Shown: one piece after another, positions 54-47,082 of the stretch
How positions within the stretch are numbered: position 1 is the stretch's first letter
Layout of the letters: each line of letters starts with the position of its first letter
NCBI GenBank assembly: GCA_038851325.1
Contig: JAWCKZ010000002.1
Location: 71,888-135,887 of the forward strand
Direction: 5' to 3'
From: Candidatus Bilamarchaeaceae archaeon
GTDB lineage: Archaea > Micrarchaeota > Micrarchaeia > Anstonellales > Bilamarchaeaceae
DNA length: 64,000 nucleotides
The notes under the pieces: generated by a model
What the model saw: the letters and a program-made list of their open reading frames with translations, nothing else
Told to the model about the DNA's origin: nothing
The model's database searches: none
Made by a program: the position numbers and the translations under genes

Positions 54-1400
54 ATGAAATATTTCAAAACATTTATGGTGGATGCTGCAAAGCAGAAGAG
101 TAAAGGCCCTACTGCTAACCATAAACTAAACAAATTGTATGTTCAGCACGAAGGGTTGCTTACCACTCAAAACAACGTACAACCATCGCCAAGGGGGCGT
201 AATGTAACCGTACATGGTCCACTAAAAATTGCTTTGGAGGAGTTTGCGCCAGACGCCGAAAGCTACGACTCTCTACGATGTATAACCAGGTTCGCAAGCG
301 AGGACTTTAGTAGTCTTTCGGAGTACCTATTTACAGTGCTCAAAAAAGCCTTTGAAGGCGTGGTGAGATGCTCCATCTATCTTGCCGAAGAGGTAGGAAC
401 CAGGAGCAGTTTCAAAACAATCCTCTCGCATTATCTGACTATTAACATGAATGGAAATGTAAGAACAAGTTCGTTGGACAAGGGAAGCAGAATATCAGAT
501 AAGAGCGATCCTATTTTGAAGGCTTATCTGGATAAAAAACCCAGGTTTATAGATTATCGCGCGGGCATGGACCTGATTTTCAAGAATCTTAATTATGAAA
601 ACAAAGACTGTGATGTGTACGTAAGAGAACCTAACATCCTTAAAGATGATGTTGCGTTGATACCATTTTATTACAGGGAAAGGGATAAACTTCGCGGTGT
701 GATGGTACTGGAAGGAAACCTCAAGTGTAAAAATTCGGCAAAATGTGGTTTTGGGAAAGCATTCTATTTTATGATGGCAGCTACAGCACTCGGCGCCCAA
801 GTTGGTTTTATATCAATGCAAAAATACGATCACACAACCGCGCTGTATAAAAAAAGCGATTTTGAGATAGACCTAAAAACATTAATTCGCAGATTGTTAA
901 AAGCACAAAAGCGTGGTGCGCAAAAGAACGCTATTATCCTTCTCGTAGACCTTGATAATTTTAAGGCGGTCAATGAGCATTATGGATATTTAGCTGGGGA
1001 CGCTCTTCTTAGTAATATAGCAAAAGCGATAAAGAACTCCGTGCGCAGGCCCACACAAAACAGAAAATCAGACATTATAGCCAGATGGGGCGGGGAGGAG
1101 TTCGCTATTCTTCTTGAGGATATAGATGAAGAAAATGCAATCAAAATAGCCAACCGAATCAGGGACGAGGTGGCCAAGGCAAAGATAAAAGTTGACGAAA
1201 AAGAGATAAGAGTAACATGCAGCATAGGCCTTCTTAATATCGAGAAAGCTTTGGCGACAGATAAGAGAACAGGTGTGGATGAAGCAGCAAAAAATGTTTT
1301 TAATAAATGCAACACCCTTCTCAAATCTGTTAAAAGCAACGGAAAGAATGGAATAGCGTTTGTTTCAGAGGGCAATGGTGTGGAGCTGATACGCGGATAG
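54..1400 (+). CDS. GAF-GGDEF diguanylate cyclase
   Basis: LLVDLDNFKAVNEHYGYLAGD motif; RKSD-IIARW-GGEEF (RxxD I-site plus active site, GGEEF at nt 1089-1103); VTCSIG and KSNGKN; upstream GAF-like segment (ALIPF...LRGVMVL). Start ATG 54 or GTG 45. Confidence 0.9.
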   Translation: MKYFKTFMVDAAKQKSKGPTANHKLNKLYVQHEGLLTTQNNVQPSPRGRNVTVHGPLKIALEEFAPDAESYDSLRCITRFASEDFSSLSEYLFTVLKKAFEGVVRCSIYLAEEVGTRSSFKTILSHYLTINMNGNVRTSSLDKGSRISDKSDPILKAYLDKKPRFIDYRAGMDLIFKNLNYENKDCDVYVREPNILKDDVALIPFYYRERDKLRGVMVLEGNLKCKNSAKCGFGKAFYFMMAATALGAQVGFISMQKYDHTTALYKKSDFEIDLKTLIRRLLKAQKRGAQKNAIILLVDLDNFKAVNEHYGYLAGDALLSNIAKAIKNSVRRPTQNRKSDIIARWGGEEFAILLEDIDEENAIKIANRIRDEVAKAKIKVDEKEIRVTCSIGLLNIEKALATDKRTGVDEAAKNVFNKCNTLLKSVKSNGKNGIAFVSEGNGVELIRG

Positions 1401-1445
1401 CGTAGAGTTTTTAAATTATCTTTCTATAGTTTTTTTGGTAATCGT

Positions 1446-2258
1446 ATGCCGAGAAATTTCTTTATAACCGGTTTGCCAAAATCCGGGAAAACAACAATTC
1501 TGAGGAAGCTTATAGAGGAATTTAAGAAGAGGGGACTTAAGGTCGGCGGGTTTATCTCCCCAGAAGAGAGAGAGCACGGCACTAGAGAAGGTTTTTATGT
1601 TCAGGATATAGACACAGGCCGGATCGGCAGGTTGGCATCCACAAAAGGTGACGGTCCAAAGGTGAGCAAGTATCACGTAGATATAAAATCCTTTGAGAGT
1701 ATTGCGGTGCCGATCATGAAAAAAGTTGACGAGTATGACGTTCTAATCATAGATGAGATAGGACGAATGGAGATGAAAAGCAAAAGGTTTGTGGAGCTCC
1801 TTGATGAAGTATTCGAGTCCCAAACACCAGTCATCGCATCTATTCATCAAGACTACGTGCTGACGTACGCCGTAAATGGTGAGATATTTGTTGTCACACC
1901 GACGACTCGCGAGGCCGTGTTTATTGATCTCCTTAATAAAGCAACTCAGGAATACTCACGGGTTCCACCCGAGGAGAAAATAAGGAAAAAGGAAAAGCCA
2001 CCCAGAAAAGAGAAGAAGAGAAAAAAGGAAAAAAGGAAAGGAAAGGAGAAGACAAAGAAGGGAAAAGGGTTGAAAGAAGAAAAGAAAACGGAGGAAAGAA
2101 AGGAGCTGAAGGAAGAACGAGAAAGGGCAAAGGAAGAGGAAAGGAAAGAGGAAGAGGAAAGGAAAGAAGAGGAAAAGGATAAAAAAGAGGAAAGAAGTGC
2201 TGAAAAACCAGCGCAAAGAGGAATAATAAGAAAATTTCGTGAGCTACTTGGTTTTTAG
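1446..2258 (+). CDS. Nucleoside triphosphatase (NTPase_1/THEP1 family) with long charged C-terminal tail
   Basis: FITGLPKSGKTT Walker A, VGGFIS, REGF, IIDEIGRME Walker B; K/E-rich tail ending GIIRKFRELLGF. Confidence 0.88.
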   Translation: MPRNFFITGLPKSGKTTILRKLIEEFKKRGLKVGGFISPEEREHGTREGFYVQDIDTGRIGRLASTKGDGPKVSKYHVDIKSFESIAVPIMKKVDEYDVLIIDEIGRMEMKSKRFVELLDEVFESQTPVIASIHQDYVLTYAVNGEIFVVTPTTREAVFIDLLNKATQEYSRVPPEEKIRKKEKPPRKEKKRKKEKRKGKEKTKKGKGLKEEKKTEERKELKEERERAKEEERKEEEERKEEEKDKKEERSAEKPAQRGIIRKFRELLGF

Positions 2259-2334
2259 TATATCTTACGACGTAGATTTTCAATTAACTCTTACTATCAA
2301 ATCTGCTTCATTCGGCCTACCACACTTTAGCTAT

Positions 2335-4041
2335 TCAGCTGCTCTCTTCCCACAGCTTCTTTATCAATTTCTTTAGCTCTTCTCGCTTTCTTAGGAATTC
2401 CATCTCTTCTTCTTTCGTTAGTCTCATCTGCTCTTTTATATATGCTTCTTTTTCCTTGATCTCTTCTTTTTCCTTCACCTTTCCCTCACCTATCCTGAGT
2501 TCAAGAAGTTTTGCTTGGTGCGAGAGCAGAGTAAGACGCTTGTTCAGGCCATCTGACATTTCTGAAAGTCGCGAGAGCGAGTTGTTTATCTCATCTAAAA
2601 GTTTCTTTTTTTCCTTTATTTCCTTTGCGGCCTCAAGTGCTTTTTTGAGTTCGCTTTCACCAACTTTCTCTGCGAATTTTTTTGCCTCTTTTTTGATTTC
2701 TGTTTCCTGCGCTGCAGCAATCCCCCTCATTCTTTCGAGCTCCTTCTCTATCTTATCTATTTCGGCATTATATCCTTTAAGCGACGGTACAATACGCTCT
2801 TTTATTTGCTGGAATGTGACATATCTGTTTTTATCCTCTTCGAGCGCTTCTGAAATCTTCAGTGATTCTTCTTTCAACTCTGCAAGTTTATCCTCTATGT
2901 TTTTGGCAAGCTCCTCTGCCTCAACTGCTGTGGTTCGTCTTCCGCCAGCAACTTCGAGCAGCCTTTTTAGCGCGCTCACCTTCTCTTCTATTTCCCTCTC
3001 TCGTCTTTCAAGTTCTTTCATTTCTTCATGGAGTTTGGCTTGAGATGGAAATCTTGTTACTATACCTTTTGCAACTTCCAGAGAATCCGAAAAGCGCTCT
3101 ATGGTGTCAAAATTCTCCTTTAGTTTTTCATCTACTCTCTTTATGTTCTCAAAGAGTTTGTCTGCCTCTTTAGTGAGCTCCTTTAATTCTTGTTTAAGCG
3201 TTGCGGATGTTTTTTCATATTCTTTTAGAGATCCTCCAACTGCTGAGACTATTTCGGCTCCTTCTTTAATGCTTACTATATCCTCCCTAAGTATTGCATT
3301 TCTTTTCTTCATCTCGTTGAAATCTCTTACAAGGGAATCAAATTTCTTGCGCATTTCCGCAGCAGACGGTATCTCAATCCCTGTTGGAACTTCTTCCTTA
3401 AGTTTTCTTTTTGTTTCCTTCAGTTCACTCATTAGACCAAAAATCTCATTTTGAAGAGTCTTAAACCGCTCAAACGCCTTTTCGCTTTCAGGTTTGGATA
3501 TCTGTGAGCTTAACGTGCTTACCTCTTTTTGGAGCTCTTTTATTTCATTCCTAATTCTGTTTATTTCAGAAACGGCGTTCGACAAGATCTTTAAACTATC
3601 ATCAAATCTTTTCTCCGAGAGCTCCTTCTCAGCTATAACTGGTGCGATATTCCGTTCTATATCGTCCAGACGCTTGTATATTCTTGCGTAAACCTCTGAG
3701 AATGATTCTTTAAGTTTTTCGATCTTTTCCATCTCAGGTAAAAGAGCTTCCCTTGTTTTTTCTATCTCTTTAGTAAGCTCTGCCTTTTCTTTTTCAAACG
3801 AGAGACGTTCCTCCTCTATCTGTTCGGCTGCTGGTTGAACCCATACAAGGTATATCTTGGCAAGTTTATACTCTACACGAATTATTCCTTCTTCCTCAAG
3901 AACTCGCGCCCACTCTTCGATGGTGTCAGAAGGAATGTTTAGGGTTGCAGCGCATTCATCCACTTCTATTTTTCCTTTTTGCTTCACAAGTTTAACGAGA
4001 GCATCAACTCCTGTTGTGATCAGTAATTCATCAAATTCCAT
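2335..4041 (-). CDS. Hypothetical protein, N-terminal winged-helix-like domain plus long coiled coil
   Basis: N-terminal TTGVDALVKLVK...EEWARVLEEEGIIRVEY HTH/wing pattern, then ~480 aa of E/K heptads; no Walker motifs. Confidence 0.75.
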   Translation of the reverse strand: MEFDELLITTGVDALVKLVKQKGKIEVDECAATLNIPSDTIEEWARVLEEEGIIRVEYKLAKIYLVWVQPAAEQIEEERLSFEKEKAELTKEIEKTREALLPEMEKIEKLKESFSEVYARIYKRLDDIERNIAPVIAEKELSEKRFDDSLKILSNAVSEINRIRNEIKELQKEVSTLSSQISKPESEKAFERFKTLQNEIFGLMSELKETKRKLKEEVPTGIEIPSAAEMRKKFDSLVRDFNEMKKRNAILREDIVSIKEGAEIVSAVGGSLKEYEKTSATLKQELKELTKEADKLFENIKRVDEKLKENFDTIERFSDSLEVAKGIVTRFPSQAKLHEEMKELERREREIEEKVSALKRLLEVAGGRRTTAVEAEELAKNIEDKLAELKEESLKISEALEEDKNRYVTFQQIKERIVPSLKGYNAEIDKIEKELERMRGIAAAQETEIKKEAKKFAEKVGESELKKALEAAKEIKEKKKLLDEINNSLSRLSEMSDGLNKRLTLLSHQAKLLELRIGEGKVKEKEEIKEKEAYIKEQMRLTKEEEMEFLRKREELKKLIKKLWEESS

Positions 4042-4094
4042 GGCAGAGTATTAAAAACATAAGATTTAAATATGGAATTCAGGATAATCACTCC

Positions 4095-6185
4095 ATGCGA
4101 TCCCATGCAATACTTTTTCTGGCTTTGATGGCAGGCCTGTTGTCAGCGTTTGTGCCATCGGATTATTTCTACGCCAACGAGGGAAATGTTACGGTTACAT
4201 ATACTAACTTCACACTCAATGGAACTCATTATTCCATAGTTTATTTTAATGACCAGGAAACATTTCTTATTAGAGAAGGAGAAATCGTGAATGATAGTGA
4301 GATAATAAAAAACGTAGTACGGTCATATTATAGAAGTGCGTTCTTACCTTCGGAATCTGAACTTGATGAAATACGCTCTTTGGTAACGGCATACAACGCA
4401 AGCAGAAATGACGGCTACGGCTACTACAAAAATAAAGAAGAGTACGAATGCAGAGGCGCACTACTAACTGATAAAAGAATAGAGATTTATATTAATGGAA
4501 CAAGACAAAAATTGTGGTGTCATGACGATGCAAGTTGTGAAATAAACGCCATGTTATTGTACCAGGCTTATGGCGAAGGGCTTGGGTGGTCAAGTTACAG
4601 AGTGATACTTCAGCCGTTGAAGGATTTCGCATATTCAAGTTACGGCACTGACGAAATTTTAGAAAACTTTACACGGATGCTAAACACCGACGATGCAACC
4701 GAGCTCTATAACGCTCTTAATTATATGAAGAATTCGATACCAACTTTGGAGTCTTACGCCACTAAGATAGAATCTACCATCTTTAGGTTGCCTCGTCCGG
4801 ATGATGCCGCGGACAAAGAAAGTTGCCATTTGATATGCTACTCAATATGTCCGCCTTTTGATCTTAATACAACTATCCTTGACAGGCTTGAGACAAGGAT
4901 AGATAGCATAAAGGCTAAGATACAGCCACTTGCTGAATACAATACCGTTGCAGAACACATAATCACGAGGACAAATGAGCGGGCGGCGTATAGATATACT
5001 TCAATGACAAGATCGCATTATAACAACATCTTTTCTCCTCTCGAGACAGAAGGAAGAGAAGTGGAAGAGTATGCTGCAAATGCCTATGGCCTTGTTGGGA
5101 ATACCTCTTTGATGATAAAGACAGAACAGCTAAAAGCCCTTCGTGAATCCATAAGAGGAAAAATAACCAACGCCTCATTTACCGGTTTGGATGACGAGAT
5201 AAGAATCTATAGAGCGATGCTTTCTTCTGTAAGGGAAGGCGCTGACTCCACATATTCGCTCTACAACGAGACTATGGATGCTAAGCGGAGAGTGGATGCT
5301 GTTCTATTTGAGCTTGGTACGAAAGATCTCTCTGATCCCGACCGAAGAGAGTACAACGAAATTAGGGAGCATGTTAATGAATTAAATCTTCAGTTTACTA
5401 AAGGCATAACGCCTGAAAAGTGTATAGAGTTAAAAAATGGTTACGATGCAGCAGAGAAGGATGCGCAGGGCCTTTTGAATAGGGTCACGATGAGTGCTGG
5501 GACAACTGCTGTTGATGCCTTTCGAATGTTTTCCATAAGGATGAACAACGGAATCGCAGACATCCTTAGGGCGACAAAAATGGCCGAGGTGAAATCAGTA
5601 CCGCACAACAAGCTTACTTTCTTCGGTGGTTTTAGCATTCTCGTGTTTATTTCATTTATGTCCATAGCATTTCTTTTGTTCCTGTATTCTGTTGGAGTGA
5701 ACAGAGACTCGCACCTTAAGTATATTCTAAGCGCTGGCCTTATGTTGGTCGCTATCCTTGCTGCTGTTTTTTCCGGTTTACTCTATTATTACATGGACAA
5801 GACAGCTACCGAAGCTACTATGGATGAGTTTCTTTTTGACCTAAACAAGAAAAGCACGGTTGCACTGGTAGCCAAGATAGACCTAGCAACTCCAGGGGAA
5901 GCCGAAAGCATAAAGCGGTGCATGGGTATAGTGGCAAATACAATCAGAGAAAAAAACAAGACGGTTGATGTTTATTATTTAGAATCAGGAAATGTTTGTA
6001 AAAAGAATAACGCAACCTACGAAAACTGCGCAGCTGATATAGAAAGCCACAATACCGCAATAATTTTCAGTCCCTCGACCACAGTGGAACCACCAACACT
6101 GTCTACGATATTCGTAAGCAAAGCGGAGATAAGAGGGCCAGCAGATTATTACGAAACATGCCCGCTTTCAGTTGTCTTTAAATAG
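4095..6185 (+). CDS. Secreted/membrane hypothetical protein
   Basis: Signal peptide, many N-x-S/T sequons, two TM helices near aa 510-565, C-terminal four-Cys domain. Confidence 0.8.
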   Translation: MRSHAILFLALMAGLLSAFVPSDYFYANEGNVTVTYTNFTLNGTHYSIVYFNDQETFLIREGEIVNDSEIIKNVVRSYYRSAFLPSESELDEIRSLVTAYNASRNDGYGYYKNKEEYECRGALLTDKRIEIYINGTRQKLWCHDDASCEINAMLLYQAYGEGLGWSSYRVILQPLKDFAYSSYGTDEILENFTRMLNTDDATELYNALNYMKNSIPTLESYATKIESTIFRLPRPDDAADKESCHLICYSICPPFDLNTTILDRLETRIDSIKAKIQPLAEYNTVAEHIITRTNERAAYRYTSMTRSHYNNIFSPLETEGREVEEYAANAYGLVGNTSLMIKTEQLKALRESIRGKITNASFTGLDDEIRIYRAMLSSVREGADSTYSLYNETMDAKRRVDAVLFELGTKDLSDPDRREYNEIREHVNELNLQFTKGITPEKCIELKNGYDAAEKDAQGLLNRVTMSAGTTAVDAFRMFSIRMNNGIADILRATKMAEVKSVPHNKLTFFGGFSILVFISFMSIAFLLFLYSVGVNRDSHLKYILSAGLMLVAILAAVFSGLLYYYMDKTATEATMDEFLFDLNKKSTVALVAKIDLATPGEAESIKRCMGIVANTIREKNKTVDVYYLESGNVCKKNNATYENCAADIESHNTAIIFSPSTTVEPPTLSTIFVSKAEIRGPADYYETCPLSVVFK

Positions 6186-6265
6186 TTTTCCTGAGTTTTA
6201 GATAAAGGTTCTTTTCAAGGGTTGAGCCACTGTAATGATCGAAGAACGCACAGGGTGAAACGCTA

Positions 6266-6757: not shown

Positions 6758-6805
6758 GTTTGAGCAATTAAAGAAAACGCAATAATAGGCGCTCAATGTG
6801 GTTGA

Positions 6806-7366: not shown

Positions 7367-7400
7367 ACGCTTATAAATTTCCTTATGCTTAGGTTTATCC

Positions 7401-7925: not shown

Positions 7926-7937
7926 CCTAAAACTTCT

Positions 7938-12872: not shown

Positions 12873-14273
12873 CTATGACCCCATTTTTTCTGTCTTTGTT
12901 TTTCTGTCTTTGTTGCGGACCATGTGGATGATCGATTTATAAGACTGGAAGAGTGAATTAACAAGGGTTTGATTTCCGCCCAGATAGTAATGATGCGCCG
13001 CACCCCCCTCCTCAGCTATCTGATGCCACTCCTTTGTTTTCAGCTGCACTTCAAATCGCAGCAATCTCGAGGTGAGAACATCCTCGGGTTCGGTGTCGTA
13101 ATGGAACGCCTTATAACCATTTTCAGGTTTGACTTTGAACTCTGGAGTGCATTTTTTGTAAAGCACGCCAGGGGTTGTATTTAGTCCGCATAAATTTGAT
13201 TCTATTACTGCCTTTGCCAATTCCAGAGCTCTCCCCTTTGCGTCTTCTTCCATCTTGTCTACCTCAATCCCATGTAGTTTGTTGATGATAACGCGGAGCG
13301 CTACAAGGTCATTAAGTTTTGCAATGTCGTAGTATTGAATAATCGATCTTATATATTTGTTTAGTTTTTCTTCATTTTCCTCAGAACTCTCGTTATGACC
13401 AACATGTAGACGCTTAAACTCATCCACCAATCTTCTATATATCTTGCGCATTATTTTCCCTTCATGTTTTTTCATTCTTGGTGCAACAATCGCATCTGTG
13501 AAGCCTTGGACTCTTAACGTTTGCCTGATCCGTCTTGCAAGATCTTTGACAATGTTTTGCGTTGTATGCAGGCGTTCCGTAAGCCCGGTTTCATTCATTT
13601 TTTCCATTACATATTCGTATATCTCTCTGTGGTTTATCTTAAATGCGTGGAGAAGAATATCTCCTGCTAGGGATGGATATCCAAAAAATTCTGCCAGCGG
13701 GGCGTAGATTTTCTCCCCTGCTGTTGCGTCCCTTTTTAGAGAGTTTTCTGCATCCGATTGAGAATCGTAAAGCCTGAATATAGAACAACCATTGTTGTTA
13801 ATGACATCATTTGTTCTTTGGCTTGTTGTGTGCGTGACAGCGACATCAACTATTCGCGGCAGCAAAGCCAATGGAGCTGGTTTGTTATCATTAAGTAAAG
13901 GAATATAACTCTCCAGCGGAGCACCAGCGCGATCAAGATTTCTCAACTGACAGAATATTCTGAGTTCGTCGACTATTGCTCTTTCTTCTAGCATTTGAAG
14001 GATGGAAGGGTCCAAGCATTTAACCTTATCATAATCTATCATGTGATAAAGTACAATCTCTGTAATCCGGTGATTCAGTTCAGCCCTTTCTGGATCTTTT
14101 TTGTAGTGTTTTATTGCACTTCCATTCACCATCTTTACTTCTTCAGCCTTTTTCATGACTTCAAGGCAGTGTTGGTAGAGCTGCATAGCATTTTTTTTGA
14201 AATAAAAATTCCTAGCTGTTAGTATACTGGATTGAAGGGATGGTAATTTTTTTCTAGTTCGTATAAATTCCAT
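12873..14273 (-). CDS. RelA/SpoT homologue: degenerate HD domain plus (p)ppGpp-synthetase domain, no TGS/ACT
   Basis: IYAPLAEFFG, PRMKKHEGKIMRK, NDLVALRVII, KPENGYKAFH, FEVQLKTKEWHQIAEEGGAAHHYY. Confidence 0.88.
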   Translation of the reverse strand: MEFIRTRKKLPSLQSSILTARNFYFKKNAMQLYQHCLEVMKKAEEVKMVNGSAIKHYKKDPERAELNHRITEIVLYHMIDYDKVKCLDPSILQMLEERAIVDELRIFCQLRNLDRAGAPLESYIPLLNDNKPAPLALLPRIVDVAVTHTTSQRTNDVINNNGCSIFRLYDSQSDAENSLKRDATAGEKIYAPLAEFFGYPSLAGDILLHAFKINHREIYEYVMEKMNETGLTERLHTTQNIVKDLARRIRQTLRVQGFTDAIVAPRMKKHEGKIMRKIYRRLVDEFKRLHVGHNESSEENEEKLNKYIRSIIQYYDIAKLNDLVALRVIINKLHGIEVDKMEEDAKGRALELAKAVIESNLCGLNTTPGVLYKKCTPEFKVKPENGYKAFHYDTEPEDVLTSRLLRFEVQLKTKEWHQIAEEGGAAHHYYLGGNQTLVNSLFQSYKSIIHMVRNKDRKTKTEKMGS

Positions 14274-14330: not shown

Positions 14331-15311
14331 TTAATAGATAATACAACGCGCAGCCTTTAATTGCTCTATATTCCTACTTCCTGTGAGAAAGGCAGCTATG
14401 GCAAGTTGTTTTTTCCATTTCTCAATTTCTTCTTCAAGACATTTTTTTGTGAGGGCGATAAGAAACGGTTGTGCAGCGCCCCCCATCTCCGCACCAAGCG
14501 CTATTGCCTTTGCAACGTCTACTCCGCTTCTTACTCCGCCGCTGGCAATAAGCGGTAGAATTCCTTTACACATAAGAATGGAGTCTACAGTTTTTATCCC
14601 CCAATTTTCAAATCCCGGCACTCCTCCTTTTCGCATGTACTCTATTTTACTCCACGAAGTTCCTCCAGCGCCAGAAACATCCAACCATGAAACGCCGACA
14701 CCCTTAAGCTTCTCTGCTACCTCTGTGCTCATTCCGGCTCCTGTTTCCTTTGCAATAACAGGCACGCCAATTCTTTCTACTGTCTTTTCTATTGCTGCCA
14801 GGATACCTGAAAAATCGGTATCCCCTTCTGGTTGGATGACTTCTTGCAGAGGATTTAGGTGAATAGCGAGAGCGTCTGCCTCAACGGATGCTACGAGTGA
14901 TTCTATCTTCTCTATTGGGTATTTATTCAATTGGGCTGCCCCTATATTTGCGAGTAGAGGTATATCAGGCGCGACATCTCGCACTTTAAATGTATCCGCA
15001 GTGGCTGGATTCTCTATCATAGCGCGCTGCGAACCAAGTCCAAAGGCTATGCCTGCATTCTGCGCAGCAGCAGCAAGCATCCTGTTTATTTTTTTTGCCT
15101 TTGGATAGCCGCCGGTCAACGCGCATATCAAAAGAGGCGCGGATATTTTTTTACCTAAAAAATCTGTTGAAAGATCAACATCAGACAATGCGCATTCCGG
15201 CAAGGAATTGTGGATTAGCAGAATGCGCTCAAAACCTGCGGAAAAGGAATACTGGCTCTCTTTTTTTATGGAAAGAGCGATATGGTCTTGTTTTCTCTTA
15301 TAGATGCTCAC
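14331..15311 (-). CDS. fni: Type 2 isopentenyl-diphosphate delta-isomerase
   Basis: RKQDHI, LTGG, GLGSQR, IHLNPLQE, KETGAG, GAGGTSW, ASGGVRSG; probable GTG start 15311 after GGTGA. Confidence 0.95.
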   Translation of the reverse strand: MSIYKRKQDHIALSIKKESQYSFSAGFERILLIHNSLPECALSDVDLSTDFLGKKISAPLLICALTGGYPKAKKINRMLAAAAQNAGIAFGLGSQRAMIENPATADTFKVRDVAPDIPLLANIGAAQLNKYPIEKIESLVASVEADALAIHLNPLQEVIQPEGDTDFSGILAAIEKTVERIGVPVIAKETGAGMSTEVAEKLKGVGVSWLDVSGAGGTSWSKIEYMRKGGVPGFENWGIKTVDSILMCKGILPLIASGGVRSGVDVAKAIALGAEMGGAAQPFLIALTKKCLEEEIEKWKKQLAIAAFLTGSRNIEQLKAARCIIY

Positions 15312-15350
15312 AAATTCACCCGTTCGTGTCAACAATTTTACTCTATGATC

Positions 15351-18881: not shown

Positions 18882-20471
18882 ATGAATGACCAAAAAAAGA
18901 TTGGAGAGAAATTCGTAGTCTTACAGGGCGGTGGTAAGAACAGGAAAAATTTATTCGATGGAGAGCTACCTGTTGTGGAAACAAGGCCGGATAACGAAGT
19001 CAACAAAATGCTCATAAGTGCTGTGCAGAATTTGGATGCAGATATGGTGGAGAGGGCACTGAAGGCAGGCGCGTATCCAGGGCTTATAGATTCAGATGGA
19101 AATACGTTACTTCATTTTTCTGGATATGAAGGTAATTATAAAATTTCAAAACTGCTTATCGATTACGCTTTGGCTAGAAAGATTGATATCATTAACGTAC
19201 ATAATAAACAGAACAAGACGCCGATGGACATGGTGCTGGATGGTCGAAGACCTGATTCCGAAGGACATGCTAAGGTCTTCGCACTTCTGAGAATAAATAA
19301 AGGAAAGTGGTTTAACCCTGAAATTCTTTCTCACATAGGAAATTTTGAAGAGACTAAACGAGTAATCGAGCGTATAGGAAGAGCTGCCATGTCGAGCGAA
19401 TTGATAATGGCTGCTGCAGCGCTTGATATTGATTACGCAAAAAAACTCCTCAGATGTGGTGCTAGTATTTTTTTTAATGATACGGCGACCACCGAGATCT
19501 ACACTTCTCCGCTTGCTGTTATCATAGGCAAAGCGCTTGAGAGCGGTCTTACCGATGAGATAGTAAATGCTGCCAAACTTTTTGTTGACTGGAACGCCAA
19601 GCTTAACGCCCCATTTATACCAGATTTAAACAACCCATATTTTAAGGTTACATTGATTGAGATGCAAGCAGCAGATGGCATTCCGCATGACATACGGGGT
19701 CTCCTGAAGGATCTTTATGATAAGCAGCTTGCGAACGAACAGCTTTTTGTTGCTGCGGATGAGAATGATAGGTATCGGGGCGAAAGTGCGATAAGAAAAG
19801 GCGCAAGCGTGGACGCGCGGGACGAATTTTTCGGTACTTCACTTCACACTGCTCTGGCCAAGGCGCATCTTGATTTTGCAGAGTTTATTGTCGAGCTCAA
19901 TACCGATTTAACAGCTGTAGATAGCATTGGCTCTACCCTAATTCATGCTGCTGCTTATTCGAAAGATCCTAGTGCGCTCACGCTTATAATAAGCGCTATG
20001 AGAAATGCAGGTATCGAGCCTGACCTTGATGCCAAGGACGATTTGGGGAATGCGCCAATACATGTCGCGGTTTTTAGAAGAGGGTATGAAATGGTAGAGG
20101 CGCTGGGAAAGGCAGGTGCTGACTTAAACGTGCGAAGCGATTCTGGTGAAACACCCCTTCACACTGCAGTCATGATGGATGATCCAGATATGGGCGGTTT
20201 GCTTTTGAATCTCGGAGCAGAGATTACAGAGGATGTTATTAAATTTGCAGAGGAGAGAGGCAGGGATGACATAGCAGATGCGCTAATGAAAATAAGAGAA
20301 AAACAGAAAGCAGCAGAGTCTCTTCATACTGCAATTAAAAATGAAGAGCATGGCGCAACGCTACCTGCAAAGAACGAAGAAAAAACTAAAGATGGGCCAG
20401 AGGAGGCAGGTAGAAAACTGCCCAACAACGTTGTGCCATTTCCTAACCTCGAGCGCAAAGGCAAATCCTGA
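18882..20471 (+). CDS. Ankyrin-repeat protein
   Basis: DSDGNTLLH, FGTSLHTA, GSTLIHAAA, GNAPIHVAV, GADLNVRSDSGETPLHTAV. Confidence 0.92.
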   Translation: MNDQKKIGEKFVVLQGGGKNRKNLFDGELPVVETRPDNEVNKMLISAVQNLDADMVERALKAGAYPGLIDSDGNTLLHFSGYEGNYKISKLLIDYALARKIDIINVHNKQNKTPMDMVLDGRRPDSEGHAKVFALLRINKGKWFNPEILSHIGNFEETKRVIERIGRAAMSSELIMAAAALDIDYAKKLLRCGASIFFNDTATTEIYTSPLAVIIGKALESGLTDEIVNAAKLFVDWNAKLNAPFIPDLNNPYFKVTLIEMQAADGIPHDIRGLLKDLYDKQLANEQLFVAADENDRYRGESAIRKGASVDARDEFFGTSLHTALAKAHLDFAEFIVELNTDLTAVDSIGSTLIHAAAYSKDPSALTLIISAMRNAGIEPDLDAKDDLGNAPIHVAVFRRGYEMVEALGKAGADLNVRSDSGETPLHTAVMMDDPDMGGLLLNLGAEITEDVIKFAEERGRDDIADALMKIREKQKAAESLHTAIKNEEHGATLPAKNEEKTKDGPEEAGRKLPNNVVPFPNLERKGKS

Positions 20472-40386: not shown

Positions 40387-43300
40387 CTAGCCTTTGTCCC
40401 TCTCGTTTTTCTCAAGAATCTTTATCTGCGGCTTTTTCTTCTTTTGCTGCGTCATGTATATTACTACAAGTGCTGCCAGTAGAATAGAGGCAATTATGAG
40501 ATATAGCGCCATATTCCCTTTCCCTTTTATACTATTTATGTAATCTATAAGTTTTGTTCCTTCGCTTATCGCCTTTACATAGTTTCCAGCGGCAGCAAGA
40601 GACTCAACATTTCTTTTCTTGCTTTCTATTTCAGATATCTGTTCTCCAGATAGTTCAGGTCTCCTTGCTGAAAGGTGCTCATCAATCTCATCCAATTTTC
40701 TGTAGGCATTTGTAGACAATAGCCTTAATGTTTCTTCCATCTTTTTAACTGCGGTTGGTATCTCCTTCTCAATCTTATTCTTTGCACTCCTCATGTCCCC
40801 TTTTTCCAGCAATCGTTCAGTTTCCGAGAGAAGGTTCCTGACTGAGTTTGGCTGTATTGGAAAGAGACTCTCCATACCTAGACCTTTTGCATCCTTGTGC
40901 TCTCTTTCATATTTTTGCAGGACCTTCTCAACACTCTCTCTTACTTCTTCTAGTTGTGCTCGCATTTCCTGAAGTTCTGCCTGTCTTTGGGAAATGAGAG
41001 AATCCTTCATTTTATTTAAGTTATCAAGGTCGGCGAGCACAGTAATCATATCTGTTGCCTTTTCAGTTGCGAGCAATACGTTTATGTCATCCTCAAGCTG
41101 TTTTAATGCCGATGATGCATTTTCATTGTCGTATTCTGCAAATTCTTTCTTAAGTGATTCAAACTCCTTTTTCGCTTGCCTGCTTACAGCGCTCACCTCT
41201 CCCTTTAACCAATTTAAATCGATCTTTTTCAATTCGTCAATTGCGAACCGTATCTCATTCTTCGTTGCGTTCTCTGATATAGATAGCCGTGATAACTCGC
41301 TTTCAAGAGCCTCCTTTCTTATCTGGAGTTTTCTCACTTCGGTATGATTTGCTATTCCTAGCTGATTCGCTTTTGCTATGGACTCATTCAGATCTTTTAA
41401 TTCGTTGGTCAATCTTCTCATGAGGTCGTGATATTCCTTTATAAGCGATGATTTTTCCTTCTCCAACTCAGCACATTTCTTTTTTAAATCTTCGAGCCTT
41501 TTTATTGCCTCTTCGTATCTCCCTTCGTTTAGCAATCTCTGTGTCTCTTGAGCAAGCTGGCGTATCTCAGGTTCTTCTGAATTAGCATATTTTCTTAGTT
41601 CTTCTTCTATGTACTTTGGCGGGTCTGTTATGGTGTAACTTATGTGTACTGTAGCCTCCTCCCCATTTTGAACATCATAGAGCGTTATGGTATGCGTTCC
41701 GAGGACGTTTTCCCGTGTGCATCTGTGCCTTCCGCATGATATCTGAACATTCGAGACATACCTTTCCTCTCCTATATCTGCAAACACTGGAACCTCATTC
41801 AGCTCTATGTTTGCCTTTACTTTTATGAAATAACTTACAGTGGCACTTGCACTTGATGCCGTTACGCTTGCGTCACTCTTTGTTTCTGTGTATGCATTCG
41901 GCACAGTACGTTGGTTCGTGAGCGTGTGGACGCCCTCTGAGAGCGGTCTTGAGGGCTCAAGGCCATCTATCAAGATGTTTGTTGCCCCCTCCGGAAGCGC
42001 AATCCTCGCGCCATCCACATCAAGTTTGAACACTACCTTTTCATTGATTCTTGCACTTCCGTCCCCGAGTCCGACTGCCTTTATCTCTTTACTTCTTGTT
42101 GTTGCGAGGAGAACGCTCTTCTCAAATGAGATCACTTTTCTCTCAAACGGCGCTATAGATGTAAAGAGTATCTTCATCGTTTTTCCTTGTGTGCTTACAC
42201 TAAGTATATCGGAAGTGTTAGAAACAATATTTGAATACATGAAATTAAAACTCCCCTCAAGAGGAACAGTTACCTCGATCTCTTCCCCACCATAGCTCTT
42301 TGGATTTATGATGGTAACGACGTATGTTACCTCCGTTGGAGCGTCTATGGCAACTGGCCCCATCAAAAACGACGTTTCCACAATAAGCTGATTTGCAAGA
42401 GCAGCATTTCTTTTTTCTTCGTCAGCCTCCAGGGCTTCTTCTATATCTCTATATTTTTCAGCGAGTGATTTAACGCCACAGACCGCCAGATAGTTTATAC
42501 GACCGCTTATTACAATGCCGCTCTCAGCACCTCTCATTTCATCCAGAAGTTCATCCGCATTTGCAGCAGTGAGTCTCTCATTAAGCTCCGTTCTTTTTTC
42601 TTCTACTGAGGCATATCTCAGTCGAACTGCACTCTCAATCTCTCTTTTTATCTCATTCAGCCTTTGGACAGCAGTGGGAGGCTTATTACTTTCTATGTAT
42701 CCGATTTCTGCCCGCCAACCTGCACCGCTTATCCCAGCACATCTCTCTGCATCACTGATGAGCTGTTTGAGCTCAGCAAGCAGCGTGTTGTACAACATTT
42801 CCTCCTCAGCACTTTTTCCAGAGACGCTTTTTGCGATCTCTGTTGCTTGGATGTACAACTGATACTTTGCACCCAATGTTGAGGCCCTACTTGCTTCGTC
42901 GTATTTCCTCCTTGCTTCATCTAAGATTGATTTTGCCTCGTTGCCAAGATTTTCTTTTGCTATCTTATTCTCAGCAGCCTTTATCGCTTCCTCAGCCTCG
43001 CCCCTTCTAACTTCCACTACCTTTTCAGCGTCTGCGATGATGGTGTCAGCGTTACCTATGGAAGAATAATCATCAACCGCTCTCTGCATCTCAGTGGTAG
43101 CCGTCAGGAAATAGTTATCTCCTTTGCGAGCGTAAGCACTCTCAGCGCTCTCATAGTGCCCCTCAGCGCTCTCTGTAGTTTTCTCGTATTCCTCGGCCCT
43201 CTCTGCAATTGTCCCCTCTGCGATATCGCTTCTCATCGCGCTTCCAGAGATCGGAACTGCCTCGGTTATTTTTTCTAGCTCTTCTTCTTCAATCTTGTAC

Positions 43301-44295
43301 AATCCCTCTTCTGCTTCTGATTTTTTTCTGCTTGCGTTCTCCCTAAGTTCATCGTATGTCCTTATTGCTTCCTCCTTGCTTTCATTTCCCATCTCTGCCA
43401 ATTCTGTGAATATCTTAACAACACCATCGTTTTTCTCATCTCCCCATATAAGAATCATAGTGCTATAGTATAGCGTAGAATTTGGTCCGCTCTCCAATTC
43501 AGTACTGAGATTTCGCATATTTCTTCGCACGAGATTTATCTTTCCATAAGTAGTCTCTTCGGCTCCGCTATCAACGAATGTAAATGCCCTTTCCATCTCT
43601 CTGCATTTTTCACCAGCAGTCCAGATATAGCCTCGCTCGCAAAGCCCAGTGCGTTTTAAGTCTTGGTACACCATTCGTGCATATAAGACTGTTTCCGTGG
43701 CGTTTTGTGCACTAAGCTCCAAGGCATCCAGCGCAGCATTCATCGTGTCTTTCCAATTGTTATTGTAATCCTTGACTGAACTTTCAAGCTCACCATAACC
43801 AAACAAATCCAAAAACATACCACCAGCGCATCCTGCGACACCAAAGACAATCGCGCCAGCTGCCGTACCAACTCCGGGAACAATGCTTCCAACTACAGCA
43901 CCAGCTCCTCCTCCAGCCAATGCCCCAGCAATGCATCTTCCAATGACCGAATCGGCTTCAGCTGCTCTGCGAAAACTTGAGAGCCTCTCGGTTACGACAT
44001 CGTATTTTTCGTCTGCATTTCTTTTGTTTCGTAGTGCCTCAGTGAGTTTGGAGTTTACCGCGTTGTTGTTCGTTCTTATTTTGCTTAGGTTCAGCGCCTC
44101 AAGTGTATAATGATAATCTGAATAACAAGGCGTTTTCCCATCAACCAGACAGGCGTGCTTTCTCTCCCAACCATAATCTTGCCATGGCCTATCTATTCTG
44201 TTTTCAGAATTAACAGCAGAATTAATAGCACCAACAAATCCGCAATAAAAAAGTAAAATTAACAATAAACTGGCAAAAATTTTGTTTATTTTCAC
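40387..44295 (-). CDS. Giant surface protein: signal peptide, glycine-zipper hairpin, coiled coils, Ig-like region, C-terminal TM
   Basis: CIAGALAGGGAGAVVGSIVPGVGTAAGAIVFGVAGC; heptad regions; beta-rich middle; LYLIIASILLAALVVIY-MTQQKKKK. Confidence 0.8.
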   Translation of the reverse strand: MKINKIFASLLLILLFYCGFVGAINSAVNSENRIDRPWQDYGWERKHACLVDGKTPCYSDYHYTLEALNLSKIRTNNNAVNSKLTEALRNKRNADEKYDVVTERLSSFRRAAEADSVIGRCIAGALAGGGAGAVVGSIVPGVGTAAGAIVFGVAGCAGGMFLDLFGYGELESSVKDYNNNWKDTMNAALDALELSAQNATETVLYARMVYQDLKRTGLCERGYIWTAGEKCREMERAFTFVDSGAEETTYGKINLVRRNMRNLSTELESGPNSTLYYSTMILIWGDEKNDGVVKIFTELAEMGNESKEEAIRTYDELRENASRKKSEAEEGLYKIEEEELEKITEAVPISGSAMRSDIAEGTIAERAEEYEKTTESAEGHYESAESAYARKGDNYFLTATTEMQRAVDDYSSIGNADTIIADAEKVVEVRRGEAEEAIKAAENKIAKENLGNEAKSILDEARRKYDEASRASTLGAKYQLYIQATEIAKSVSGKSAEEEMLYNTLLAELKQLISDAERCAGISGAGWRAEIGYIESNKPPTAVQRLNEIKREIESAVRLRYASVEEKRTELNERLTAANADELLDEMRGAESGIVISGRINYLAVCGVKSLAEKYRDIEEALEADEEKRNAALANQLIVETSFLMGPVAIDAPTEVTYVVTIINPKSYGGEEIEVTVPLEGSFNFMYSNIVSNTSDILSVSTQGKTMKILFTSIAPFERKVISFEKSVLLATTRSKEIKAVGLGDGSARINEKVVFKLDVDGARIALPEGATNILIDGLEPSRPLSEGVHTLTNQRTVPNAYTETKSDASVTASSASATVSYFIKVKANIELNEVPVFADIGEERYVSNVQISCGRHRCTRENVLGTHTITLYDVQNGEEATVHISYTITDPPKYIEEELRKYANSEEPEIRQLAQETQRLLNEGRYEEAIKRLEDLKKKCAELEKEKSSLIKEYHDLMRRLTNELKDLNESIAKANQLGIANHTEVRKLQIRKEALESELSRLSISENATKNEIRFAIDELKKIDLNWLKGEVSAVSRQAKKEFESLKKEFAEYDNENASSALKQLEDDINVLLATEKATDMITVLADLDNLNKMKDSLISQRQAELQEMRAQLEEVRESVEKVLQKYEREHKDAKGLGMESLFPIQPNSVRNLLSETERLLEKGDMRSAKNKIEKEIPTAVKKMEETLRLLSTNAYRKLDEIDEHLSARRPELSGEQISEIESKKRNVESLAAAGNYVKAISEGTKLIDYINSIKGKGNMALYLIIASILLAALVVIYMTQQKKKKPQIKILEKNERDKG

Positions 44296-44373
44296 ACTCT
44301 CAACCCTATTTATTGTTATGTGTAAAAAACTTTAAAAATATACGCACAAAAATCTGGGTGGCGTCTGTTGGCG

Positions 44374-47082
44374 CTATTCTTGACCACTAGTATGCGCCTG
44401 CGTCCATTCCAGATAGGACTCTGCGTTATATGGATTGTCTGTTGGGAACTGCGGTTGAACGCCATACTCGCTAAGCTTTTTCCATGATGGGCAGTAAGAG
44501 TTTTCACAATTTCTATTCAGCCAGGCGTAATAGCCCATCTTCTTAAATATCCCATACCTGTTATCATACTCTTTGCCTATCCTGCAATCAATAAACTCTA
44601 AGAAATCGTTTGCCTTGTTGTAGCAAAGGCTGCTTTTCGGTTTACATTTGCCACTCGCATCTTCTTCGCATCCTTCTGGGCATACCCCATTTTCATCAGG
44701 TTCGCATACAAGAGTCTTTGCTTTGCAGTATTCATCTACCCAACATTCAGAGGGAGAGGTGCCAGAGGGACACATATCAGGGGTATCTGTTTTGTCTTCC
44801 CATACGCCGGAATACTCATAGAGCGCAACAAAACCAATAAGAATATCTTTTTTTTGCTGGTTTCCTTCTATGCCAAACAAATCTTTCACCTTTTCACAAT
44901 CATCGTTATGCTCTTCCACCCATCTTTTTGCCCTTTTCATATCGTCTGAAAGATGAAGCGCACCCGCGCATATAGAATGGCTTGAGTTAAATGGATTATA
45001 CTCTTCTGAGCAGTAGATCTTCACTGAGGTTGGGTCTATTTTGTATCCTTCTTCATATATATCTTCATGCGGTCCGTCTGTACCATCTTCTCTGTACTCT
45101 GCTGGCCAATAGGTATACGGGGGTACCATTACCTGCATAAGCCCCATCCCACGGAAGGTATATCGAGGCGGTGTCGCTTCCGAGTTCTCAAAATAGCAGC
45201 CAGCGGTGCCTCCGCTTTCTTCATAGCGCGGGTCGTACATTTCAGGGTAGCCGAGCCTGTATGCTCTAGCGCTGCCAGGGATACACCATTTTGTTTTAGT
45301 GTTTCGTCCTTTTTCTTCCACCTCTTCTTCACGATCACCTTGATATACCTCAACATCCGTGATCTCTTTTGGAATGTCTACGCTTACCTCGAATTTACTC
45401 CTAGTTCCTGGTTTACATATGGCTGCAATTGCGCAGGAGTCAAAAGAGCTTTCACCGAGTGCAACAGCACGAAGGAGCATTGGATCAAGGTTAAACCTTG
45501 AAGCATAATATTCAAATTCAGGATAACCGGTGCATGCATAATCTGGAAGGCTACCGGGCATATGTTTTTTTAATACTGGGTAAACCACAGTTATATCCTC
45601 TGCTTCAGAAAGACAGGCATCGCATCTCCAAGGAGACTCTATTTCTGTTTGATACGTTGGCATTACTGGGTTGAGGAGATCTGTGTAACCGCCTTCTCTG
45701 GAGGTCAACAGGCTATAAAGCGCATCTGTTGAGGACTCTCCGACGTCGCATATTCCTCCTGGTACATTTGAAAAATGTATTGGTGGAATTGCTGTTCCGA
45801 TCTTTTCGACATTGGTACCCTCTCCCTTTTCAAATCCAACATAATTTTGGCAATTCCCAAACCACGCTACCTTTCGCTCATATTTCGTTGTCACGCCACA
45901 ATCTGTGCAGTGAAGCGGGTTGTTCCATGACCCGCCTTCTGTAGTATAAAGCGCTGCGCCTATAACCCCAACTCTACTCAACGCTTTTATTCCATATATA
46001 AAGAATGAGTTGTAAGCATCTGTGACAGCATTTTCGCTCCATGTGCATTTATTGTTAAGGTCGCTCCCTCCGGAGTCTATTAAGATGTATGGTATTATAG
46101 ACGGTAGACCGTATCGGTAGAGCGCATAGCTCGAGAACTGTCTTCCATCTTCTATTAATCTGTTGCCGTTGCAGTCATACTTGTTCGTTCCATTTATATA
46201 ATGCGAGTTTAGGCCATAGGCAACCAAATGGATATACCGCTTATATGCTCCTTCTCCATATCTTGCATCTATACTATTTATGACGGCATCGAGGGCAGCT
46301 TTGTCTCCGATCCTAGGCGCAACAGCAACCATGCAATATATCTTTGGTTCGTTTGGATTCCTGAAATCGTTGCAGTTTTCGTTTATCGCTATAACCTGAC
46401 CAGCAACGTTCTCGACAGCCTCTGGATCGCTGCTGTTGAACTCTAGTTCGGTAACTATTACTACTGGTCCGACTGGTCCTTCCACACTACCTTGTGTTAT
46501 TATGGGAAGACCTTCTTTTCCAAGTATTCTCGCAATCTCTCCAGCACGGTCGACGTCTATGTTTTTTCCTTCGCTGTAAAGAACATAGACTGGTAGGGTT
46601 TCCTTATCGAGCATGCAGATCGCGCGGCTAGCATCGGGCAAATCGTATGGTCTATACTCGTTTGCCGTGAGCCAATGGACAGCCATACGCAATCTGGCAT
46701 TACATAATCCGTTTGCTGTTCCAAAGTCCGCGAAACTTGGTCCTTGGCCTATCATTATTGGTCGCCAGACATACTCCTGACCTAGCTGAGAGCTTGTATT
46801 TCTGTATTCAGTTAACTTTGTTTCGTTACAGGCAGTATCGAATATGCATCTTCCACCAACAATGGAAGAGAAAAAGAATCTATAAAATGCCGGACCTCTC
46901 TCGCACACCATGCACGTGCAGTTTCCTAATGTGCACTCCCCTTCTGGAGAGAGAGCTGGTGTCCGGGACATTCGTATTAAATATTCATCGGCATAATTAT
47001 TGCCGCCAAGCGTTTTTATACATCCAAGGGTAATGAGAGCGCATATAAGAAGCGCTATCATGGTCGGTCTAGTTTTGTTCAT
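44374..47082 (-). CDS. Large Cys-rich lipoprotein-like protein with lytic transglycosylase (SLT/GH23-like) domain
   Basis: LITLGC lipobox; ASRFNLDPMLLRAVALGESSF, GMGLMQV, PFNSSHSICAGALHL, ALYEYSG. Confidence 0.75.
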   Translation of the reverse strand: MNKTRPTMIALLICALITLGCIKTLGGNNYADEYLIRMSRTPALSPEGECTLGNCTCMVCERGPAFYRFFFSSIVGGRCIFDTACNETKLTEYRNTSSQLGQEYVWRPIMIGQGPSFADFGTANGLCNARLRMAVHWLTANEYRPYDLPDASRAICMLDKETLPVYVLYSEGKNIDVDRAGEIARILGKEGLPIITQGSVEGPVGPVVIVTELEFNSSDPEAVENVAGQVIAINENCNDFRNPNEPKIYCMVAVAPRIGDKAALDAVINSIDARYGEGAYKRYIHLVAYGLNSHYINGTNKYDCNGNRLIEDGRQFSSYALYRYGLPSIIPYILIDSGGSDLNNKCTWSENAVTDAYNSFFIYGIKALSRVGVIGAALYTTEGGSWNNPLHCTDCGVTTKYERKVAWFGNCQNYVGFEKGEGTNVEKIGTAIPPIHFSNVPGGICDVGESSTDALYSLLTSREGGYTDLLNPVMPTYQTEIESPWRCDACLSEAEDITVVYPVLKKHMPGSLPDYACTGYPEFEYYASRFNLDPMLLRAVALGESSFDSCAIAAICKPGTRSKFEVSVDIPKEITDVEVYQGDREEEVEEKGRNTKTKWCIPGSARAYRLGYPEMYDPRYEESGGTAGCYFENSEATPPRYTFRGMGLMQVMVPPYTYWPAEYREDGTDGPHEDIYEEGYKIDPTSVKIYCSEEYNPFNSSHSICAGALHLSDDMKRAKRWVEEHNDDCEKVKDLFGIEGNQQKKDILIGFVALYEYSGVWEDKTDTPDMCPSGTSPSECWVDEYCKAKTLVCEPDENGVCPEGCEEDASGKCKPKSSLCYNKANDFLEFIDCRIGKEYDNRYGIFKKMGYYAWLNRNCENSYCPSWKKLSEYGVQPQFPTDNPYNAESYLEWTQAHTSGQE

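Follow-up and report, generated by a model that had tools for sequence, protein, structure and literature searches.

Do a diguanylate cyclase, a RelA/SpoT homologue (RSH), an ankyrin-repeat protein and a surface protein with a soluble-lytic-transglycosylase-like (SLT-like) domain, all encoded by one archaeon, form a single system aimed at bacteria? The question is raised by a 64,000-nucleotide stretch, hereafter the window (G000:C2:71888-135887), from the genome of Candidatus Bilamarchaeaceae archaeon of the Micrarchaeota, whose assembly comprises 899,799 bases in 18 contigs and is 90.9% complete with 0.02% contamination. The original prediction, made from the letters of the window, had read four of its genes as a possible bacteria-directed toolkit, and the four open reading frames (ORFs) that it named do exist:

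54..1400, + strand: GAF-like sensor region followed by a GGDEF diguanylate cyclase domain (PF00990, TIGR00254), 448 amino acids (aa)
12873..14273, - strand: RSH, 466 aa, with a degenerate HD-like N-terminus, a Rel-like linker (13410-13745) and a synthetase domain (12981-13328), and no TGS or ACT domain
18882..20471, + strand: ankyrin-repeat protein (Ank_2), 529 aa as assembled, repeats at 19941-20228
44374..47082, - strand: Cys-rich surface lipoprotein, 902 aa, with a signal peptide and a lipobox-like LITLGC at 47020-47037

We consider it probable, on balance, that these genes represent four unrelated, vertically inherited families typical of Micrarchaeia and not one system, each with the role proposed for it below. 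The families differ in their distribution, rate of change and neighbours, and we therefore read them as separate native features.

We examined the distribution of each family in samples of 301, 201, 191 or 151 genomes of the phylum (f denotes families and g genera). GGDEF matches were found in 129 of 301 genomes, 113 of them over the cut-off (80/176 among genomes at least 90% complete), with 5/5 in the archaeon's own genus, 38/64 in f1, 31/75 in f10, 26/54 in f11, 1/23 in f2 and 1/14 in f6. The lipoprotein family was present in 124/301 genomes and followed a different pattern (f1 62/64, f2 21/23, f6 14/14, f10 0/75, f11 0/54). Taken together, f10 and f11 contain GGDEF in 57/129 genomes where the lipoprotein family is found in 0/129, and f2 and f6 contain the lipoprotein in 35/37 genomes and GGDEF in 2/37. 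The RSH subfamily (P0002-type) was confined to f1 (31/301 genomes; g1 5/5, g5 18/22), and the RelA_SpoT domain matched in 49/191 genomes, including ORF forms of ~650 aa (138 bits) in f18. Ank_2 matched in 81/151 genomes, 77 of them over the cut-off; the unpublished genome G029 accounts for one positive in the GGDEF count and one in the Ank_2 count. Within f1, a hand count gave GGDEF in 22/30 genomes that have a P0002-type RSH and in 16/34 that do not, a mild association which is carried by two genera whose members, being kin, are not independent. Co-occurrence across the Micrarchaeota, the check proposed for the toolkit, was thus negative, and one linked anti-bacterial toolkit is not supported; the four genes behave as separately inherited lineage features. 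Their description as atypical for archaea holds in general; it fails within this phylum, in which each of the four kinds of gene is common.

The four genes are real and native to an archaeal contig that is not chimeric. That their surroundings are clearly archaeal housekeeping genes was borne out by Pfam matches of the window neighbours to S3Ae, S13/S15, S7, S12, EF-2 and NAC, as well as to Trm1, TruD, CDP-archaeol synthase, Cdc48 and ABCE1, and the assembly contains archaeal small-subunit (SSU) and large-subunit (LSU) rRNA together with an archaeal RNase P (Rfam). GC content, third-position GC content (GC3) and codon usage of the four genes fell within the spread of 13 neighbouring genes, mostly housekeeping. 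Public runs containing the stretch are labelled hot springs metagenome; contigs from four runs of one study (X1, possibly the source sample, and X2-X4, independent ones) tile positions 1-20000 of the window at an even depth of 4-9x and bridge the GGDEF/NTPase, TruD/RSH, RSH/isopentenyl-diphosphate (IPP) isomerase and Ham1/ankyrin junctions. An origin of the bacterial-type genes in assembly or binning contamination is therefore refuted as far as gene content is concerned and retains next to no probability: contigs of three further samples span every junction tested, orthologues of the GGDEF, RSH and lipoprotein genes are present in 5/5 genomes of the genus, synteny is kept in relatives, composition is native and the contamination estimate is low. 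What such an origin has in its favour is a short stretch within the ankyrin ORF, evidence of one or more local errors in the deposited contig:

19476..19504, + strand: 29 bases, an exact match to the Illumina P5 adapter; a local assembly artefact

The mapped run data showed a depth spike of 950-8000x with adapter-like loose ends in this region, and comparing the window with the contigs of all four runs gives 13 mismatched letters and 2 gaps there. The artefact is limited to these positions, and the ankyrin repeats lie downstream and are unaffected. Continuity of the ankyrin ORF across the adapter is not assured, and there is no full-length orthologue to compare it with: among 41 genomes of the family none was found, and only the repeat region matched.

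The cyclase domain of the first gene has the following layout:

822..1271, + strand: GGDEF domain, with DLDNFK at 948-965, xxGD at 990-1001, the I-site RKSD at 1062-1073 and the A-site GGEEF at 1089-1103

The protein scored 104.4 bits with PF00990 (E 6.6e-30, cut-off 23.8) and 101.7 bits with TIGR00254 (cut-off 37.4). Its closest solved relative is the tDGC of T. maritima (4urg, E 7.5e-18), and the A-site GGEEF, DLDNFK, the N of VNEHYG and LAGD are all present in the alignment to it; the roles of the catalytic and guanine-contact residues are those known from PleD. Residues 18-285 appear GAF-like by language-model features, which we treat as a lead only. Neither a transmembrane segment nor a signal peptide nor any hydrophobic segment was recognised in the sequence. 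Full-length orthologues share 53% and 44% identity within the genus and 27-35% in a sister genus. A GG[DE]EF-type motif was found in 23 ORFs in 21 of the 23 relatives' loci examined, with RxxD kept in 19 of these 23 ORFs, and the NTPase gene beside the GGDEF gene was not conserved in 10 relatives' loci. Because the protein combines an I-site, the seat of product inhibition, with a GAF-like sensor region, it is likely to be a regulated enzyme. Its catalytic and I-site residues are all present, and we infer a cytoplasmic enzyme that would make cyclic diguanylate (c-di-GMP) within the archaeon. The sensor region would switch it, product bound at the RxxD I-site would hold it back, and its output would run through receptors not of bacterial kinds. 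The alternative already allowed for by the original prediction, that the archaeon uses these messengers itself, is the one we favour: the signalling enzymes are most likely endogenous.

The RSH gene lies beside a conserved housekeeping gene:

14331..15335, - strand: type 2 IPP isomerase (TIGR02151, 390 bits, cut-off 281)

PF04607 matched the RSH with 33.7 and 35.1 bits against a cut-off of 27. When searched against the Protein Data Bank (PDB), a profile of nine homologues returned E. coli RelA (5iqr, E 4.9e-8) and Rel_Seq (1vj7, E 1.1e-7), and the single sequence matched 1vj7 with E 1.9e-4 both in the linker, where residues 181-288 align with Rel 165-258, and in the synthetase core. In hhalign, residues 180-421 aligned with a long RSH that carries HD_4 and TGS (probability 97.3, E 2.4e-11) while the first 180 residues were left unaligned; long RSHs with HD_4 and TGS are also the closest relatives outside the family. 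Ten residues (R266, K269, K273, K277, D322, Y387, E408, Q410, H427 and Y430) were invariant in 9/9 sequences. Of the N-terminal residues, H35, H77 and D143 are retained, and all of the sequences (9/9) lack the Asp of the HD dyad. No TGS or ACT domain was matched in Pfam, the protein ends ~35 aa past the synthetase domain, and ten full-length homologues, which NCBI names "hypothetical protein", bear PF04607 only. The synthetase domain is preceded by 300 aa, including the Rel-like linker, so this is not a single-domain synthetase, and the protein contains no hydrophobic segment. A search of the genome contigs with the single protein for related loci matched no relative. The RSH gene adjoins the IPP isomerase in 5/9 relatives' loci across three genera; the isomerase shows 60-71% identity and the RSH 35-45%. 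The gaps that flank the RSH (57 and 118 nt) hold no ORF, and hence no adjacent antitoxin gene.

We propose that the RSH descends from a long RelA/SpoT enzyme whose ribosome-sensing tail and hydrolase dyad have since been lost, and that it would use ATP as the donor of a pyrophosphate group and a purine nucleotide, most likely GDP or GTP, as the acceptor, giving an alarmone. The motifs that such a reaction calls upon are in place, and its substrate and role are putative. As a divergent, fast-evolving family the RSH is the freshest item of the four, and with it the range of enzymes derived from long RSHs would come to include archaea, in a pared-down version. In some relatives two or three RSH-like copies stand side by side (G283:C35:4413-7116; G179:C48:20494-23192).

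The ankyrin ORF matched Ank_2 with 79.6 bits (E 2.7e-22, cut-off 27.3), one of 10 matches in the genome of the archaeon, and would be one member of a fast-turnover repeat family that has expanded in the phylum. Five Micrarchaeia genomes of ~1 Mb hold 38-49 ankyrin matches each (G099, G054, G061, G082, G106), and G099 carries a tandem ankyrin array of roughly 30 kb (G099:C1:689857-722610). By analogy, such an expansion recalls that of host-associated bacteria. The ankyrin protein has no hydrophobic segment, which it shares with the GGDEF and RSH proteins, in agreement with the earlier statement that the cytoplasmic-type enzymes carry no Sec signal.

The lipoprotein is the one product of the four that is predicted to act outside the cell. 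A hydrophobic segment marks its N-terminus, G20 and C21 are invariant, and it has 39 Cys in all. Its parts are as follows:

~45673-46935, - strand: barrel of the glycoside hydrolase clan A type (GH-A-type), (beta/alpha)8; model with a predicted local distance difference test (pLDDT) of 85 and a predicted template modelling score (pTM) of 0.86
~44494-45582, - strand: GH23/SLT-like domain, from a model with pLDDT 79.8 and motifs
45439..45456, - strand: GESSFD, candidate catalytic Glu544-Ser545; E and S invariant in 5/5 close homologues
45133-45150 and 44977-45000, - strand: GMGLMQ and YNPFNSSH, further GH23-like motifs

By its predicted structure and motifs the C-terminal domain is GH23-like, disguised from Pfam. 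SLT was the only recurrent Pfam match among relatives of the lipoprotein (12/26 at E<=0.05, 2/26 over the cut-off). The motifs were conserved across C-domains (E 19/23, S 19/23, G 23/23, M and Q of GLMQ 22/23, NPF 23/23); E-S and GLMQ are the names under which the motifs of family-1 lytic transglycosylases are known. An AlphaFold2 (AF2) model of residues 480-902 (pLDDT 79.8, pTM 0.81) was compared with solved structures by VIA-align, and the top eight matches were all lytic transglycosylases or g-type lysozyme with Z 8.2-10.8: MltF at the top (Z 10.8, 162 residues, 3.1 Å), followed by 5o2n, MltC, Slt70, MltE, P. aeruginosa Slt, salmon g-type lysozyme and Cj0843c (Z 8.2). Since the tool's own note warns that models without a true match often reach a best Z of 7-8, the weight lies on the consistency of this list and on the motifs. 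The GH23 chitinase 3w6b reached Z 7.4. The earlier motif call of an SLT domain is therefore upheld by the recurrent SLT match, the motif conservation and the fold match, despite a Pfam score below the cut-off.

For the barrel model, Foldseek returned GH53, GH26, GH39 (PslG), GH2 and GH5 at E 4e-7 to 1e-5 with probability 1.0, the exopolysaccharide hydrolase PslG at E 1.9e-6. E212, which follows the fourth strand as counted by eye, is at least 90% conserved in 36 sequences. A five-homologue profile of the lipoprotein collected 243 proteins among 1.84 billion representatives, including stand-alone N- and C-domain forms, and the N-domain is the widely conserved part of the family. We propose that this membrane-anchored protein carries two glycan-cutting folds outside the cell, the GH-A-type barrel and the GH23 lysozyme/lytic-transglycosylase-like domain with its catalytic Glu, and that it would cut a polymer of the N-acetylglucosamine/N-acetylmuramic acid (GlcNAc/MurNAc) type. 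The foremost candidate for that polymer is bacterial murein, which might be cut in the course of attack, attachment or scavenging. A murein of its own is unlikely for the archaeon because no FtsW/RodA match was found in its genome. A single Mur-ligase-family match, considered as a sign of own murein, was uninformative, as the same model matches wall-less archaeal controls.

Two large genes flank that of the lipoprotein:

47167..52005, - strand: 1612-aa membrane protein of no known family, with two N-terminal hydrophobic segments and a zinc-ribbon-like C-terminal CxxC...CxC
40387..44295, - strand: 1302-aa coiled-coil surface protein, downstream of the lipoprotein gene, with a signal peptide, a Gly-rich hydrophobic stretch and a C-terminal membrane anchor

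A homologue of the 1612-aa protein adjoins the lipoprotein gene in 8/11 relatives' loci, and one of the 1302-aa protein in only 1/11. The former gave no Pfam or NCBIfam match and only chance-level matches in the PDB; the latter gave no Pfam or NCBIfam match over a curated cut-off.

Several observations weigh against the roles proposed here. For the cyclase, the bacterial partners of c-di-GMP were missing: PilZ, EAL, HD_5 (HD-GYP) and MshEN gave 0 matches each in the genome, and at Rfam gathering scores no riboswitch, GEMM included, was found in the whole assembly, where the only matches were 14 tRNA, RNase P, 5S, SSU and LSU rRNA and SRP RNA. In the phylum, PilZ was present in 1/301 genomes (G230, with 3% contamination; C3, C5 and C39) and EAL in 1/201 (G014:C44:698-4399, an 868-aa GGDEF-EAL protein on a 4.7 kb contig), and both may be bin contamination. 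HD_5 was present in 31/201 genomes, 24 over the cut-off (f14 8/10, f15 3/3, own genus 0/3 sampled, f10 0/56, f11 0/36), and 16 of these 31 are also GGDEF-positive. Most cyclase-bearing genomes lack every known bacterial partner type, and the endogenous c-di-GMP circuit that we infer has to be held against this failure to find receptors or phosphodiesterases of known type. For the RSH, HD_4, the RSH-type hydrolase domain, gave no match at E<=0.1 in the protein and none in the genome, and the identity of 32-46% within one genus, denoting much faster evolution than that of the IPP isomerase neighbour, fits a conflict-driven function as well as relaxed constraint. For the lipoprotein, whose GH23-like assignment draws on a predicted structure and motifs, the SLT Pfam score (PF01464) was 16.1 bits, below the cut-off of 21.3. 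Foldseek of the C-domain model returned nothing at E<=1e-3 (best MltF, E 0.32), phmmer of the SLT-like protein against the PDB returned nothing meaningful, and a profile of 23 C-domains against the PDB returned only g-type lysozyme at a non-significant E of 1.3, in which the E-S of the C-domain aligns with the E-S of goose-type lysozyme. Clan GH-A enzymes have two catalytic Glu, one after strand 4 and one after strand 7. In this barrel, the seat of the nucleophile after the seventh strand (by eye) is D336, an Asp which is invariant in five close homologues and is not among the columns conserved at 90% or more, so that the catalytic pair cannot be assigned clearly.

How do these points bear on readings other than our own? 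One of them is a bacteria-directed toolkit, in which the SLT protein would breach the wall, and delivery of the GGDEF, RSH and ankyrin proteins into the bacterium would upset its c-di-GMP and (p)ppGpp physiology, much as Tas1, reportedly a secreted RSH-family toxin, would do. It draws on the genome's want of PilZ, EAL, HD-GYP, MshEN, riboswitches and RSH hydrolase, on the fast evolution of the RSH and the loss of its hydrolase dyad, and on the location of the GH23-like domain at the cell surface. Set against it are the decoupled phyletic patterns, the scatter of the genes over 47 kb amid housekeeping genes, the I-site and sensor region of a regulated cyclase, and an RSH that resembles long RSHs with a Rel-like linker, not single-domain toxin forms. 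No secretion signal was recognised in the proteins, though archaeal effector signals are not known. No bacterial partner is known for characterised members of the group, as the original prediction stated and as the accessible part of PMC8204110 has it. We regard the toolkit as very unlikely, and found no support for its delivered cytoplasmic effectors. By the original prediction's own yardstick the missing receptors and phosphodiesterases favour export, and they were indeed missing; we weigh this lightly, as archaeal receptor types may differ. As an argument for export, receptor absence carries little weight, since no archaeal c-di-GMP receptor is known, judging by the available text of Sidorov et al. 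(2026; PMC13725321), and bacterial receptor types may not apply, so that a search for them cannot prove archaeal receptors absent. With PilZ and EAL each in only one sampled genome of the phylum, the signal reader must be new, and a 0.9 Mb genome with roughly a thousand genes offers a small search space for it. In a narrower version, the dual glycanase and its giant neighbours would form a bacteria-aimed, wall-breaching contact apparatus, and the RSH and GGDEF enzymes, without a receptor or degrading enzyme at home, would be passed into the partner to hijack its alarmone and c-di-GMP control. We think this highly improbable; if true, it would amount to cross-domain parasitism via the host's own second messengers.

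Two further alternatives concern single genes. The RSH might be a conflict gene, namely a toxin or abortive-infection nucleotide or tRNA pyrophosphokinase similar to toxic small alarmone synthetases (toxSAS), or a counter-defence factor, and not a stringent-response enzyme. Its low identity within one genus beside the 60-71% of the adjacent isomerase, the multiple copies of some relatives (G283:C35, G179:C48) and the lack of an RSH hydrolase in the genome would suit such a role; the flanking gaps leave no space for an antitoxin ORF, the place beside a housekeeping gene is kept in three genera, and outside the family its nearest kin are long RSHs that have HD_4 and TGS. We find this role improbable. 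The lipoprotein, in turn, might not be directed at bacteria at all. It could remodel or cut an archaeal glycan, to seat its giant membrane neighbours or to contact an archaeal host, with host S-layer N-glycans with a chitobiose core, exopolysaccharide or the archaeon's own envelope as candidates. The known partners of cultivated Micrarchaeota are archaea, the near-universal presence of the family in the order (f1, f2 and f6) suits a core role in cell biology, the gene is paired with that of the 1612-aa membrane protein in most loci, GH23 includes a chitinase, and the barrel resembles PslG. This use is unlikely, though less so than the other alternatives. Against it stand the structural comparison, whose top eight matches were without exception murein enzymes or g-type lysozyme, and the E-S/GLMQ motif set, which is that of family-1 lytic transglycosylases. 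Murein attack has, moreover, been proposed for other DPANN archaea (PMC8204110, in the portion accessible). That the SLT domain breaches a bacterial wall is still a live proposal, already in print for those other DPANN phyla. If the dual glycanase does cut murein, it would be the first hint of Micrarchaeia interacting with bacteria. Our preferred reading remains that of four separate native families, and the practical lesson is that the four genes are best studied one by one.

We also recorded some features elsewhere in the window and assembly. The NTPase_1 gene contains an 18-base length variant in a short repeat (window 2131 and 2021-2059) that is absent from the X1 and X4 contigs. At 39407-40372 (+ strand) the window encodes an HPr-kinase-like P-loop protein with weak matches to HprK-related kinase A/B, below cut-offs, whose gene ends 14 bases before the convergent gene of the 1302-aa surface protein. 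A large right-handed beta-helix/NosD-like protein is encoded at 62005-63999 (- strand) and extends past the contig end. The SSU rRNA match spans 2068 bases against a 1478-position model (L112:7002-9069, G000:C17) and the LSU rRNA match 3652 bases against 2987 (L108:5569-9220, G000:C13), which suggests insertions or introns in both rRNA genes.

Two of the four gene kinds have precedents in print: GGDEF cyclases in DPANN (2026, PMC13725321) and DPANN lytic-transglycosylase proteins (2021, PMC8204110), both as far as their accessible text goes. Sidorov et al. (2026; PMC13725321) describe, in the part available, GGDEF proteins in archaeal isolates and 20 proteins from metagenome-assembled genomes, mainly DPANN, report cyclase activity of archaeal GGDEF proteins, including those of DPANN, in Salmonella and E. 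coli hosts, call their archaeal occurrence sporadic and leave the receptors open; the text contains 0 occurrences of "Micrarchae" and 0 of "PilZ". Like these cyclases, the protein described here has GG(D/E)EF, an RxxD I-site and guanine contacts, a single genome copy, unambiguous archaeal flanking genes and receptors of a kind not described; its structural kin are the T. maritima tDGC (4urg), PleD and WspR. Unlike them, it has its own 260-aa GAF-like N-terminal region, conserved only within its family at 27-53% identity. With matches in 129/301 genomes, about four in ten, the cyclase is common in Micrarchaeia rather than sporadic.

For the RSH, Atkinson et al. (2011; PMC3153485) report, in the text available, that archaea lack long RSHs and have small ones only sporadically, and Li et al. 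(2021; PMC8407392) name Diapherotrites, Woese-, Pace- and Nanoarchaeota as lineages that acquired RelA/SpoT from bacteria, with Micrarchaeota unlisted in the part accessible; the latter was the only paper matched for literature linking "Micrarchaeota" and "ppGpp". The protein resembles long RSHs (1vj7, 5iqr) in the motifs RxKxxxxK, DxxAxR, GY, ExQ and AAHxxY, in a helical linker that shows homology with Rel residues 165-258, and in the order of an HD-like region followed by the synthetase. It differs from them in having no TGS or ACT, in the missing Asp of the HD dyad (9/9) and in a first 180 aa that cannot be aligned to HD_4. From small alarmone synthetases and toxSAS it differs in not being single-domain and in having no neighbouring antitoxin ORF.

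Castelle et al. (2021; PMC8204110), in the portion available, proposed that large lytic-transglycosylase-domain proteins of Pace- and Woesearchaeota act on bacterial walls. The lipoprotein is comparable to them as a DPANN surface protein with a lytic-transglycosylase-like domain and a possible anti-wall tool, a likeness by description, not by homology comparison; unlike it, those proteins belong to other phyla, can be as long as 3000 aa and are reportedly missing, for the most part, outside their own lineages. The lipoprotein as a whole differs from family-1 lytic transglycosylases in its GH-A-type barrel fusion, its lipoprotein anchor and its occurrence in an archaeon without a murein polymerase match, and its C-domain differs in an insert of ~90 residues between E-S and GLMQ, in being Cys-rich and in a sequence similarity below cut-off. 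The modelled C-domain nevertheless shares the lysozyme-like fold of Slt70 (1qsa), MltF (5aa1), MltC (4c5f), MltE (4hjy) and g-type lysozyme (4g9s), aligning with family-1 enzymes over 150-165 residues at 2.6-4.0 Å (Z 8.2-10.8), and it resembles them in its E-S, GLMQ and N-P-F-N-type motifs, which stand in matching order, and in its extracellular location.

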